This document shows positions 43,543-63,460 of a stretch of DNA of 64,000 bases, piece by piece (the first letter of the stretch is position 1; each line of letters opens with the position of its first letter). Below the pieces are notes generated by a model. The model was not told the origin of the DNA. It did not search any database and saw only the letters and a list, made by a program, of their open reading frames with translations. Source of the stretch: Octopus sinensis (lineage: Eukaryota); NCBI RefSeq assembly GCF_006345805.1, contig NC_043023.1, positions 10,168,001 through 10,232,000 of the forward strand, read 5' to 3'. The position numbers and the translations under genes are program-made.

Positions 43543-43748
43543 TCACTTTTCTTCTGAAGGTAGACATTGAAGTGCCTCAAAGCATTCAGCTTCCTTAAGA
43601 GCTTTTCTGAGTGTTTTGAGTGTTCGCATCTCTGGATCACAACTTGTGTACCATGTGTGCAGCATCTGGAAGCTCTGCTCTTTAGTGTTATAAGGATAGT
43701 CATACCTGATAATCCCCAGATCGACATTTCTGATTCCTAAATTCCTGC
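43543..43748 (-). CDS. ANK-RING-death domain gene, last coding exon (death domain C-part)
   Basis: Acceptor ttttgcAG. (G)RNLGIRNVDLGIIRYDYPYNTKEQSFQMLHTWY...TLKTLRKALKEAECFEALQCL-stop has a death-fold pattern. Phase 1 matches the upstream exon. Confidence 0.85.
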
Positions 43749-44084
43749 CTGCAAAACATAAAACAATGAGAAATAATTTCAAAATCATTAACGATTACAT
43801 AAAAGATGTGTACTGTAGTTTGTCATAAATGTAACAAATAAATTATGTCAATGAGAAATAGTTATGAATCATAAAAAAATAAATAAAAGATGTTGTTCTC
43901 TGTTTCTAAGAATGTTAATTAAATAATAACGAAGAGGTGGAAATACAGGATGAAAATGGTGAAGATTTTAAAGAAAATTCATTGAAAATTACACTTGTGA
44001 AAATTTATGGTAAACAGATGGTAGGAGAAGTGTTTGTGTAGGCAAAAGTGTATGGAGAACCTAAAGAATCAATATAGACCATCA

Positions 44085-44520
44085 ACAGTCAATCCATTTG
44101 ATCCACCCATCCATTGTCTCTGCTCAATATTCTTGGGAGGATTGTAAAGACAGAGTCTTCAGGCATCTCCTCCATAGGGTCTTATCAGAAGCAGCCGTCA
44201 TTAGAGCATTTAGTTGGGTTCCCAAACATAAACAGCTAAGGCAATGGCTATCACCCAACCATTTAGTTTGTGATCTACCCCTAGGACCCCTGCTCCATTG
44301 GTTTGGCTTGAAGAATCTGTCTTGTCATTTGTTCCTGCAACACACGTCCATAGTACCAGAGATGTGGAGAGGAACTGGCTCAACCTGGAGAGATTCCCCG
44401 GATCTCTGGACTATACATCCTATTTAGTATCATTACTCCACAGATCCTTCAAAGGAACCCCATTTTGGCCGTCTGATAACATTCCATGCTCAATGCCTGA
44501 AATAGTTGTCTGTGATGCTT
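44085..44520 (-). mobile_element. Degenerate LINE (RTE-like) 3' fragment
   Basis: Minus strand reads ...WSRGPRGRSQTKWLGD, similar to the R-x-RGRP-x-x-x-W motif at LINE ORF2 ends. Confidence 0.4.
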
Positions 44521-44680
44521 CTCCTCTTCTGAATAATTGATAACTAAAGCATATCAAGAGTTAGAAATATCTAGAAGATATGGTTTGAACTATCAGACAA
44601 TACCAGTACTATTAGGCATATCTGGGCCAATTCAAATACAAAGAGACAAGATACCAGAATGATCTCAACTACACAAAGCA

Positions 44681-45915
44681 TTGGGTTTATTATCTCATAA
44701 ATAATGCATTTGTTTTATACATCTTTTATTCTTCAAAATTAAGATAAACAAAGTTCTTTTTTAACCTAAAATATACTCTCCTTCATTTTTTACAATGCTC
44801 TTCCATCTATCTAGCGCACTTGCAAGGCCCCTCTTCCAAAACTGACTTGTCCGTGATGAAAAATACTCCTCCACTACTGTTCTGCCTGCATCTACAGAAT
44901 TCATATTTTTTCTGTCCAAATGATTTTGAAGACTGCAGAATAAAGGATAATCGGATGAGGCAATGACTGGTGAATATGGTGGGTGGGGAATTGTTTCTCA
45001 TTCAAACTGCTCCAGCCTTTGGAATGTCATCCTTGCTGTATGTTGCCAAGCATTATCCTGATCGAAGAACACCTGTCATCTTGGAACCAAAGATGGTCAT
45101 TTCTCTTCTAGCACTGACTTAAGCCACTCAAGCTGCTCACAGTAGATCTCCTTTGTTATCGTTTGGTTAGGGTTCAAAAGTTCAAAGTGGACCAAACCTT
45201 TCATATCCCACCAAACAGATAACAGCACCTTACGTGGGTAGAGACCTTTTTTATTCTGGAGTGCCAGTATTTCTCCTTTCCCTACCCACTGTCTTTGGTG
45301 CATAACGTATTTATAGAGAACCCTTTTCTCATCACCAGTCACTATTCAGTTCAGTTCAATGAGACATGGCAGCAGAGAAGAGCACACATTCACTCTGTGT
45401 GCGACCCATTGACCCAATTTGCTGATTTTTCCAATACCACGCAAGTGTCGATGAATGGTTGAATGACCGAATCCAAGCTTCTCTGCTAGTTACAATGGGA
45501 TTTTGTTCCACCAGGGTTTGCAGGATGTCCTCATCAAGCTCTACATATCTTCCAGAACAAAGTTGATCTTCTTGGCTGTAGTTTCCAGCTCAGAACTTCT
45601 GGAGCCACCATTGACACTGGCTTACACTTATTGTCCAATCCCCATATACTGCATTAATATTCCTCGCACTTTCTGTTGCATTGTTGCTTTTACTGAACTC
45701 ATAAAGCAAAATATGTCGAATATGCTCCTTTGTTACTTCCATTATAGCTTTGAAAAAATAACTGTTAAAATTTAACTGCACTCTTCAAAACTCACACTAA
45801 GAATAAGTACAAGGTACTGCTTTTATAGCAAGTTGATGCAGATAGTTTATCCCATCCCCCTCCGACTTTTAGTTCATACAATTGAAAACACTGCATTACT
45901 TATGGGATGACCCAA
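44681..45915 (-). mobile_element. Decayed full-length mariner transposon (~1.24 kb)
   Basis: ORF pieces MEVTKEHIRHILLYEF...AVYG, TGDEKRVLY, LLSVWWDMKGLVHFELL, DQDNAWQH. Imperfect TIRs ttggg...cataaataatgca and tgcattacttatgggatgacccaa. Confidence 0.88.
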
Positions 45916-60487: not shown

Positions 60488-60882
60488 TCTTTATATAAGA
60501 GTGAAGTTGTGTGTCTGTCTCCTACGATTTAGATTCGTAACTACTCCCACATTTTGCGGTGCAGTTTAACCAAAAGCGGGTATCTTATAGTCGTGATTCA
60601 TATCGAGCCCTTCTGGGTATTAGCGCACATCTACGATGAGTCTACGATTTTAAAAAAATTCACCATCATATTTTTCCATTTTAATGCATTTTTTTCGCTT
60701 TTATATAAGGGAAGTAACTCTCTAAAAATATCTACGATGTGTCAACGATTTAAAAAAAAATTTACCTTAATTTTTTTTCAATTTTTAATGCATTTTTTTG
60801 CTATTTTTTGGCTATAACTCTCTAAAAATGCTTATATAGTTATTTCCCTTACAACCCGAGCAACGCCGGGCAATACTGCTAG
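60488..60882 (+). mobile_element. Non-autonomous Helitron-like element
   Basis: a|TCtttatataagagtgaagttg...cccgagcaacgccggg hairpin, CTAG|t. Another Helitron-like 5' end (tctctattataaaagg) at 59709. Confidence 0.8.
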
Positions 60883-61363
60883 TATAATTATAAAATGTTT
60901 ATAAAAATTTACCTATGGGTTATATTTCCGCACTGACCACTTAGTAAAATTTATTTATGATTTTACCCTTTAATATAAATATATATATATATACATATAT
61001 ATATATATAAATTTATAAATGAGGATAATATCGATATTTAAATATCGATATTATCAAGTGGCCACCATGGGAAAAAATACCGTACAAAGGTAATAATTTT
61101 TTTTTTAACAATTAAAAATGAGGGTGTCATATGTACGTATGCACACGGCCAGTTAAATTGCCCGCCAAAACACCCCATAAGCACGATATGGTTAAAATAA
61201 ACACCGCAGTGAATATAATAACGATATGAACATTTAACGTGGTTTTTATAGTCAGAGTTTCGACTGCTATTTCGGCATGGTGGTGTCTCTCAGACACCCT
61301 CATTTTTAATTATATATATATATATATATATATATATATATATATATATATATATATATATAT

Positions 61364-61910
61364 ATAAGGTGGGGACCCAGAAGGACCCAGAATTTTGCAA
61401 TATTATTTTCTTTGCTTAGTTTTACGTATTAACACTATTATCACCGTCAAAGTAGTCCCCATTTGAAGCACTGCATCGACCCAGACATGTTTTCCACTAT
61501 TTTGTAGCAGTGCTGGAACTGCCCTGAATGAGGTTGGACCTCAAGTGACAAGTGACCATTCGAAAAGCATGAAACCACTCGTGATCTTGTGTTTTGCTCG
61601 TGGCATCATGGCAGTGTCCTCGTAAACTGTTTGAAGCATGACAACTGTTTCGGCTGCCGTTTTCTCCAGCAGAAAACAGAATTTTATGGAAGCAAGCTGA
61701 TCCTTCATTTCAGCCATTGCAAAACTCGAACAGGGGAGAAGCCCTGCAAAACAAAGATGCACCACATGGTAACAGCACCATCCTCGAAGATGCCGCTTGG
61801 CAGGATGATGCCTGAGTATCGCATCAAGTGGCTTCTAGCAGCAGAAGCCTGAACTTCAATGGCCTTGCCCTACAGAAACGTTTCCGGCCACTTTTGGGTA
61901 CCCCCTCGTA
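61364..61910 (-). mobile_element. Internally deleted mariner element
   Basis: Imperfect TIRs (ggggacccagaagg / cttttgggtaccccctcgta). Remnant MAEMKDQLASIKFCFLLEKTAAETVVML. Confidence 0.7.
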
Positions 61911-62693
61911 TATTCGATATACTCTCTACATTATAGATCAACGATATATATACACACCTGAGTAAACACGGCAATCTATATATGGTATGATGAACAACTG
62001 TTATAAAGCCATGAAATTTAGGATGGGGAGAGGCATTAATGTGGATTATAAGGACCCCAGTACATGACTGGTATTGTATTTTATTAGCCTAGCAAAGATG
62101 GAAGGACATGGTGACCTCAGCAGGATTTGAACTCTGAACATAAAGTGTGGTAAATAAATACCACAAGGTATTTTGCCCAACAGCAATCAGACACAAAAAC
62201 AGGAGAAAAGAGGGAGGACAATTTATTAAATGAACCCCTGGATATTACTGGTACAGATTTTCACTCCAGGTTGTTAATAAATACTCTGGCAGGATTTGAA
62301 CCTGCAACATAAACAGATCAAACTAAACACTGTAAGGGAATGATTCTGCATTTAGACCAGGGTCAGAGGAAAGAGGAAAATTATAAGAGAGAGGGGGTGA
62401 GGTGTTTTATATGGAATGAAAAGAAGAGAAGGAAAGATTTGAACTTGTAAAGTTGAGGTAACGAAGGATGAGATGAAGTAAAGAATCTAGTCAGGTAACA
62501 ACAGCAACAATAATAATTAGGATGATTAATTAATGAAGTAGGTTACAGTGTCATTAGAGTGTGAGAGAGAGAGAGTTGAAGCACGACGTCCCATGGTGGT
62601 ATTATGACATGAATGACTCAAAACAAGAAAACAAACGTTATTGAAAACATTAAAGAAACAGATTTGGATAATCCAAATCCATTGGGGACTTAC

Positions 62694-63460
62694 TTTTGAA
62701 CTGCCAGATGGAGGGGAGTGTCACCATGTTTGTCCAGTTTATTGGCATCGATGCCATTTTGTTGTAGGAGAAGTTTAGCTGTGTCTGTGTGTCCATCCCA
62801 ACAGGCAAGATGTAGAGGTGTCCGACCATATTTGGTCACCACCCTCACATCAGTGCCATTTTGTTGTAGGAGAAGTTTAGCTGTGTCTGTGTGTCCATCC
62901 CAACAGGCAAGATGTAGAGGTGTCCGACCATATTTGGTCACCACCCTCACATCAGTGCCATTTTGTTGTAGGAGAAGTTTAGCTGTGTCTGTGTGTCCAT
63001 GAAATGAGGCATGATGTAGAGGTGTACAACCATCGTTGTCCACCACCCTCACATCAGTGCCATTCTGTTGTAGGAGAAGTTTAGCTGTGTCTGTGTGTCC
63101 ATAAAGTGAGGCAAGATGTAGAGGTGTCCGACCATATTTGTCCACCAACATCACATCAGTGCCATTCTGTTGTAGGAGAAGTTTAGCTGTGTCTGTGTGT
63201 CCATAAAGTGAGGCAAGATGTAGAGGTGTCCGACCATATTTGTCCACCAACCTCACATCAGTGCCATTCTGTTGTAGGAGAAGTTTAGCTGTGTCTGTGT
63301 GTCCATGAAGTGAGGCAAGATGTAGAGGTGTGCAACCATATTTGTCCACCACCCTCACATCAGTGCCATTTTGTTGTAGGAGAAGTTTAGCTGTGTCTGT
63401 GTGTCCATGAAGTGAGGCAAGATGTAGAGGTGTCCCACCATCATTATTTCGCTGAGTGAC
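62694..63460 (-). CDS. ANK-RING-DD gene, ankyrin-array exon (8 TPLH repeats, 102-bp units)
   Basis: Acceptor tttttAG at 63461-63462, donor GTaagt at 62693. Open frame VTQRNNDGGTPLHLAS...GDTPLHLAVQ. The upstream exon(s) were not identified and probably lie beyond the window. Confidence 0.95.

Follow-up and report, generated by a model that had tools for sequence, protein, structure and literature searches.

The question raised by the 64,000-nucleotide stretch of the Octopus sinensis genome examined here (NC_043023.1, positions 10,168,001 to 10,232,000, forward strand, assembly GCF_006345805.1; hereafter the window) is what kind of protein unites an array of ankyrin repeats, a RING finger, a variable linker and a C-terminal death domain. 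An initial annotation, made from the sequence alone, had read these domains from a single minus-strand gene and proposed a lineage-specific, receptor-like E3 ubiquitin ligase, citing Mind bomb as a mere parallel for the pairing of ankyrin repeats with a RING. Descent from Mind bomb was missed: judged by sequence comparison, the gene is a Mind bomb derivative that has kept the ankyrin domain (ANK) and the internal RING, with a RIPK1-like death domain standing where the catalytic RING would be. The gene is real and spliced, and it is one member of a large family in octopus that has gone unstudied.

The gene comprises twelve minus-strand exons within positions 63460-43543 of the window (Table 1). 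All 11 introns begin with GT and end with AG, the phases are consistent throughout, and the joined frame encodes 629 amino acids with its sole stop at the end, in agreement with the exon structure first proposed. Exon 1 begins at a splice acceptor, placing the 5' end of the gene beyond the window. The model corresponds to residues 132-726 of the RefSeq protein XP_036370063.1 (P0001, 726 aa), save that RefSeq omits exons 7 and 8; the RefSeq protein has 131 extra N-terminal residues of ankyrin repeats. Pfam finds seven Ank stretches in exon 1 and one in exon 3, and twelve on P0001, whereas TPL motifs and alignment place 10-11 repeats within the window. Exon 5 matches zf-C3HC4_3 (E 2e-11, 43.9 bits, cut-off 27). 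Exon 12 alone scores 20.6 bits on the Death model, slightly below the cut-off of 22.6, and spliced P0001 scores 38 bits (E 1.8e-9) over profile positions 2-79 of 86, a complete death domain. Pfam and the RefSeq protein thus agree with the claimed order of at least ten ankyrin repeats, C3HC4 RING, linker and C-terminal death domain.

Splicing, which the initial annotation had proposed to confirm, was sought in contig sets of four public runs, presumed to be RNA although none of the runs listed is recorded as such, aligned at 90% likeness. Among the joints listed, those between exons 1 and 2, 3 and 4, and 4 and 5 are spliced in all four sets, that between exons 11 and 12, which lies inside the death domain, in three of the four, and that between exons 5 and 6 in one, giving five junction types; as far as tested, transcripts do not stop before the death-domain exons. 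The contigs may derive from alleles or paralogues of the gene, and none of those listed from the four runs joins the RING to the death domain. One contig (run X4, record 17) starts 280 nt within the intron preceding exon 11 and splices to exon 12; it may be a partly processed RNA or a death-domain-only transcript.

The ankyrin domain is revealing of the gene's ancestry. Among the best 60 of 359 PDB matches, the MIB1 ankyrin domain (PDB 8v0e) is the single structure that covers the core of the family without a break up to and including exon 4. A profile built from the family only scores MIB proteins at 58-104 bits, most of them over all 165 positions, versus 28-55 bits over at most half of the positions for three other ankyrin proteins. 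In alignment, the family core stays colinear with both MIB1 and MIB2 across the penultimate repeat, with its insert, and across the capping repeat; the alignment of P0001 to Xenopus MIB2 begins at the first repeat and continues through RING1. More specifically, the gene possesses the atypical penultimate and capping repeats of Mind bomb and, by position and spacing, its internal RING straight after the ankyrin domain. The MZM (Mib-Herc2/ZZ) and REP modules have no Pfam match on the 726-aa RefSeq model, on which their absence rests, the 5' exons lying beyond the window; the coiled coil and catalytic C-terminal RING are replaced by the linker and the death domain. The gene further differs from MIB2 and MIB1 in its extra near-identical repeats, the lack of a spacer before the RING, and its many copies.

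Octopus proteins of intermediate architecture lie between Mind bomb and this family. P0108 contains two Mind bomb SH3 (REP) repeats, ANK and a RING, while P0159, P0031, P0061 and P0063 contain ANK, a RING and a second, C-terminal RING. In an ankyrin-core tree (20 rows of 28 chosen proteins, with the mis-cut, long-branched P0070 disregarded) the intermediates branch stepwise toward the family with support of 96/99, 93/86 and 100/100. Against C-terminal MIB RINGs, the second RING of the two-RING proteins reaches 58-73 bits, compared with -1 to 19 for the RINGs of the family. These comparisons favour, short of proof, an ancestor of the MIB2 type with two RINGs: C-terminal RING scores of 55-68 versus 44-55, together with the two-RING relatives, argue for MIB2 over MIB1, and all four REP hits whose names carry a MIB number are MIB2, while the ankyrin-core tree, with its one MIB1 row, leaves MIB1 and MIB2 ancestry undivided. 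All five intermediates are truncated Mind bomb genes in which the N-terminal MZM region is missing. With their REP-ANK-RING or ANK-RING-RING architecture they constitute a second, probably catalytic, branch of the octopus expansion.

The family is lineage-restricted, as initially proposed, as far as hits were named, and these come mainly from Octopus. A search with the death-domain exon returned 17 proteins, all Octopus-named, and one with the ankyrin-end and RING region returned 20, of which 19 are from Octopus. Among 1.84 billion representatives (50%-identity clusters), 59 clusters match at E < 1e-10, and a RING followed by this death domain occurs in at least 27 clusters (27 of 150 among the matches listed). 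The 20 hits that were looked up comprise 16 from Octopus, one Argonauta death-domain protein, one amphipod MIB1, one from amphioxus and one unnamed. A further 54 family-like hits were left without name look-up; because 27 of these are less than 65% identical to any named protein, the family may extend to other cephalopods. About 13 O. sinensis models (a count from names) possess both the RING and the death domain, five of them on the gene's own 21.3-Mb sequence; this count includes some chimeric models, and some of the copies located on small scaffolds may represent haplotypes. In three species, paralogues with as little as about 45% identity still have the ANK-RING-death architecture. Because the family is multi-copy and expanded in Octopus, the gene is not a conserved single-copy orthologue, a possibility that had been raised at the outset. 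Family proteins are already present in databases under uninformative, repeat-driven names, and the RefSeq names 'ankyrin-3-like' and 'PP6 regulatory' were rejected as such. No description of the family was found in the literature within reach, with subscription journals and bioRxiv supplements outside it; genome-paper supplements could mention the expansion. Neither PMC8917759 nor PMC10970066 mentions it in the portions available.

The death domain probably has a separate origin. A profile of 12 family death domains compared with solved structures finds RIPK1 first (E 5e-9), followed by ankyrin-3, Fas and PIDD. The nearest relatives outside the family are octopod proteins of 116-302 aa that consist of a death domain only, lack a kinase and are named RIPK1 in RefSeq, together with one protein from Argonauta; in one comparison, the death domain of an O. 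bimaculoides family member is 44% identical over 93 aa to that of a RIPK1-named protein. We infer that these proteins are candidate IMD-like adaptors. Several (P0101, P0104, P0117 and P0155) were inspected by eye, and some exhibit RHIM-like stretches. With RIPK1 and IMD-like adaptors the gene shares a complete death domain, but a kinase and RHIM have no Pfam match on P0001, and an ANK-RING half is attached. Mammalian MIB2 recognises RIPK1 by way of MZM and ubiquitylates it (PMC5912950), so that a death domain taking over the recognition role of MZM makes a coherent, if unproven, story; in TNF death signalling, MIB2 acts on RIPK1 and cFLIP (PMC5912950, PMC7815719).

The death-domain cassette also moves, since a leucine-rich repeat (LRR) adhesion G protein-coupled receptor (GPCR) of O. 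bimaculoides carries the death domain of this family. This protein (P0110 / P0186; XP_014788728.1, XP_052821851.1) has an LRR-GPS-7TM architecture ending in a cytoplasmic death domain, which falls inside the family's death domains in the tree. It is possibly a receptor that signals by death-domain pairing, or else a fused gene model.

The repeats of the ankyrin array in exon 1 form a putative variable ligand-binding surface. Exon 1 contains six complete 102-nt units that are identical at 90-100 nt in pairwise comparison. Their amino acids vary at positions 1, 2, 3, 5, 10, 12, 13, 14, 32 and 33, the other 24 of 34 being invariant. All six positions of the classical binding set of designed ankyrin repeat proteins (DARPins), namely 2, 3, 5, 13, 14 and 33, are variable, versus 4 of 28 framework positions (Fisher p 1.6e-4). 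Replacement changes number 10 on 14.3 sites at binding positions and 5 on 61.4 sites in the framework (p 7e-5), a contrast expected of any ankyrin repeat. The other contrast, between these 10 replacement changes on 14.3 sites and 7 silent changes on 26.3 sites (p 0.04), is alone among the two in pointing, marginally, to diversifying selection. Paralogues contribute 22 distinct units, in which variability is among the highest at positions 3, 5, 13 and 14, and the number of repeats differs between paralogous models. A published library randomises binding-face positions 2, 3, 5, 10, 13 and 33 (PMC4308713), all six of which vary in the exon 1 units. The combination of near-identical repeats and hypervariable positions is characteristic of fungal immune receptors and rare among repeat proteins generally (PMC13449251).

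Variation of a different kind is found in the linker. Each of exons 6-10, taken with its flanking introns, is a copy of exon 11 (identity about 70% over 520-580 nt); all are of phase 1-1, and RefSeq isoforms of paralogues combine linker exons variously, giving linkers of 17-109 aa. In exons 6-9, 16 of 51 columns vary, compared with 4 of 86 in the introns (p 3e-5), and in 11 of the 12 codons that vary the amino acid is replaced; this apparently faster divergence of the linker exons could reflect selection on exons or homogenisation of introns. An LC8-type motif, [KR]-x-[TVS]-Q-T, mostly with aspartate at -4, is present in 30 of 68 distinct post-RING family segments, where shuffling gives a mean of 0.6 and a maximum of 4, the segments being related and thus not independent. 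Published LC8 binding preferences fit the family motif, and three paralogue motifs match the validated ZFPM1 peptide over six or seven residues (PMC6607443). As a hypothesis for these paralogues only, LC8 might substitute for the lost dimerising coiled coil.

What, then, might such a protein do? The reading that we prefer, and to which we assign an even chance, is that the protein works in the cytoplasm as a variable sensor or adaptor: its ankyrin face would bind a ligand, and its death domain would recruit death-domain partners for cell-death or NF-kB-type signalling, with a putative immune or apoptotic role. A MIB2-type ancestor would have lost its N-terminal substrate modules, and its C-terminal RING would then have been swapped for the death-domain exons of an octopod RIP1/IMD-like gene. 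Recognition would have shifted to the ankyrin array, whose units would have multiplied inside a single exon and diverged at the positions for binding, while the RING would be mainly structural in most paralogues, with weak or regained activity possible in the gene's own subfamily. The optional 51-nt exons, as copies of the first death-domain exon, may determine how far the RING lies from the death domain; many paralogues would also obtain from them LC8-type dimerisation motifs, which are degenerate in this gene. Ligand on the ankyrin face would cluster the protein, and its death domain would seed or join an assembly with RIP1/IMD-like or FADD-like partners, the predicted output being homotypic death-domain assembly. 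A bolder version, speculative and on balance unlikely, is that MIB2 has been turned into a germline DARPin-like repertoire, in which dozens of cytoplasmic ankyrin sensors signal via an IMD/RIP1-derived death domain, splicing of the LC8 linker tunes the dimerisation threshold, and the cassette wires the LRR adhesion GPCR into the same system.

Several observations weigh against the proposed ancestry or the sensor function. A RING tree of 50 columns initially grouped the gene's RING with RING1 (97/94), but approximately unbiased (AU) tests on that tree keep a grouping with IAP RINGs (p 0.55) and one with C-terminal MIB RINGs (p 0.65). Because these alternative groupings stand, the RING1 assignment rests on position and on the intermediates. 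The gene's RING also scores 47.6 on an IAP profile versus 37.9 on a RING1-type profile, and it keeps W, F, P, I and R at the equivalents of V965, M989, P993, I994 and R996 of MIB1 RING3, as mapped by inference via an amphipod MIB1. The death-domain tree, a quick one, is weak at its base (support 72-84), and Pfam found no RHIM in the RIPK1-named octopod proteins. The replacement excess at binding positions is marginal (p 0.04), comes from six related units and concerns positions selected after the repeats were seen, and homogenisation of repeats or introns could explain part of both the ankyrin and the linker patterns. No intact LC8-type motif occurs in the gene's own linker, where exons 6-9 hold degenerate versions, and gene models in tandem clusters are partly chimeric (P0002, P0027).

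Some of these points bear directly on whether the protein is an enzyme. In MIB1, ubiquitin transfer is carried out only by the C-terminal coiled-coil RING3, ANK-RING1-2 being inactive and RING1-2 having a minor autoinhibitory role (bioRxiv 10.1101/2024.03.01.582834); in MIB2, a first-RING mutant still ubiquitylates cFLIP and a second-RING mutant does not (PMC7815719). Because the retained RING matches by position the RING1 that is inactive or dispensable in these proteins, and the catalytic C-terminal RING is absent, the 'E3 ligase' part of the initial annotation has become doubtful. Activity is still conceivable because the residues that contact the ubiquitin-conjugating enzyme (E2) are kept, as is the linchpin arginine, both features of active RINGs. 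The full P-hydrophobic-C-R set around the last cysteine pair is found in 8 of 37 distinct family RINGs, this gene's among the eight (P0040 and P0077, checked by inspection, are without it). That this particular RING is ligase-active is accordingly a real possibility, though we lean against it. A fuller alternative, which we consider unlikely, makes the whole protein an active E3 ligase: the RING would bind E2-ubiquitin, and the death domain, or LC8 in paralogues, would take over oligomerisation and substrate docking from the former coiled coil and MZM region, directing ubiquitin to RIP1/IMD-like adaptors as mammalian MIB2 does to RIPK1 and cFLIP. Consistent with such a ligase are the five conserved E2-contact positions, the best structural matches in the PDB to the RING and the helix before it (cIAP and MYLIP), the tree tests, which are compatible with kinship to catalytic RINGs, and the fact that MIB2 both ubiquitylates RIPK1 and binds it via MZM (PMC5912950). 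It is opposed by the RING1 position, with four relatives having that RING plus a separate C-terminal one, by the inactivity of RING1 in MIB1 and its dispensability in MIB2, by the missing P-hydrophobic-C-R set in 29 of 37 distinct family RINGs, and by the placement of the gene's RING, which is not C-terminal and has no free coiled coil before or after it.

The loss of the catalytic RING would also suit a decoy or brake: a Mind bomb fragment without ligase activity but with a death domain, which would dampen signalling either by capping death-domain assemblies or by competing with true MIB2. The minor autoinhibitory role of RING1-2 in MIB1 (bioRxiv 10.1101/2024.03.01.582834) is in keeping with this idea, as is the missing exon for the first death-domain helix in several gene models; however, the helix-less models may be annotation errors, and a pure brake has no need of many paralogues with diversified ankyrin faces. 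We regard this explanation as quite improbable. About as improbable in our estimation is mostly neutral birth and death, in which a duplication-prone region spreads mobile death-domain exons and repeats with little selected function. It would account for the tandem clusters, for introns rich in transposons, for the many gene models that are partial or chimeric, and for the occurrence of the same death domain on unrelated genes, such as the LRR adhesion GPCR. What such drift does not predict is an open 629-aa frame across 20 kb with intact splice sites, spliced contigs, 24 of 34 repeat positions unchanged in amino acid, or an architecture kept in paralogues to about 45% identity in three species.

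Comparison with other known systems sharpens the distinctiveness of the family. ANKDD1A/B, ankyrins, DAPK1 and NF-kB p100/p105 share with the gene ankyrin repeats and a C-terminal death domain, and ANKDD1 clusters occupy ranks 20-21 in the search of representatives; to our knowledge none of these has a Mind bomb-type capping repeat and a RING. Ankyrins are defined by ZU5, DAPK1 by its kinase and ROC-COR, NF-kB p100/p105 by Rel homology and IAPs by BIR, and the 20 Pfam hits that P0001 gives with E up to 5 include none of these. The ankyrin-3 label was accordingly set aside for lack of ZU5, the name being repeat-driven, and IAP membership for lack of BIR. Plant XBAT ligases share ANK and a RING with the gene; XBAT membership was rejected, the XB3/XBAT31-type RING model scoring 17.6 bits against a cut-off of 50. 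Bivalve BIR-DD-RING IAPs share the RING and death domain, but the gene has no BIR and its RING precedes the death domain; an oyster study reports IAPs as least expanded in Octopus (PMC8917759). Fungal NOD-like receptors (NLRs) with highly internally conserved repeats (HNWD, ANK/TPR) exhibit near-identical repeats with few hypervariable positions, a death-signalling module and an expanding family (PMC13449251). Their NACHT/NB-ARC ATPase has no Pfam match on P0001; NLR membership was therefore rejected, and the likeness is one of analogy, not homology.

Pathogen recognition in cephalopods is poorly known, and the family offers a concrete candidate for an octopus-specific layer of recognition and cell death. 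It also preserves an evolutionary series in living genes, in which a ligase of the Notch and TNF pathways would have lost its substrate and catalytic modules and gained a death domain resembling that of a kind of protein regulated by MIB2. The family thereby provides a natural test of the role of the non-catalytic Mind bomb ANK-RING1 unit, and of regained RING activity.

Table 1. Positions of gene exons and other features within the window
Feature	Position	Strand	Remarks
Exon 1	63460-62694	-	767 nt, internal exon; 7 near-identical 34-aa ankyrin repeats and start of 8th
Exon 2	59029-58993	-	37 nt; ankyrin repeat completed here
Exon 3	55967-55755	-	ankyrin repeat and start of atypical insert-bearing penultimate repeat, Mind bomb-typical
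Exon 4	53674-53499	-	end of atypical repeat and Mind bomb-type capping repeat; alone without Pfam match
Exon 5	52517-52375	-	C3HC4 RING at Mind bomb RING1 position; P-I-C-R retained
Exon 6	51525-51475	-	51-nt linker exon, symmetrical phase 1-1; opens four 166-nt exon and intron tandem units
Exon 7	51359-51309	-	51-nt linker exon; omitted by RefSeq model
Exon 8	51193-51143	-	51-nt linker exon; omitted by RefSeq model
Exon 9	51027-50977	-	51-nt linker exon
Exon 10	50554-50483	-	72-nt linker exon; diverged duplicate of exon 11 and flanking intron, ~70% identity over 578 nt
Exon 11	47315-47244	-	death domain helix 1; paralogous to exons 6-10
Exon 12, coding part	43748-43543	-	remaining RIPK1-like death domain and stop; AATAAA ~250 nt downstream
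Contig, run X4, record 17	43400-43747 joined to 47243-47599		spliced to exon 12
Mariner/Tc1-like transposase remnant	44760-45790	-	intronic, broken
Mariner/Tc1-like transposase remnant	61400-61880	-	intronic, broken
LINE-like reverse transcriptase/endonuclease remnant	47900-48800	-	intronic, broken
LINE-like reverse transcriptase/endonuclease remnant	57240-57800	+	intronic, broken
C2H2 zinc-finger array	1-32020	+	~382 tandem 84-nt units, 96% match
Longest open stretch of array	10233-21860	+	101 fingers
Further tandem repeats	32714-37483		units of 324, 33, 241 and 30 nt
Open frame	37173-38084	+	304 codons; retroelement gag-like

The introns of the gene contain broken remnants of mariner/Tc1-like transposases and of long interspersed nuclear element (LINE)-like proteins, recognised by eye from translations, and Rfam finds no match in window positions 32000-64000. 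The other half of the window is occupied by a tandem array of C2H2 zinc-finger units whose frame is broken many times; it is either a giant exon with assembly indels or a satellite-like expansion. Between this array and the gene lie further tandem repeats and, overlapping their end, an open frame that appears by eye to encode a retroelement gag-like protein.

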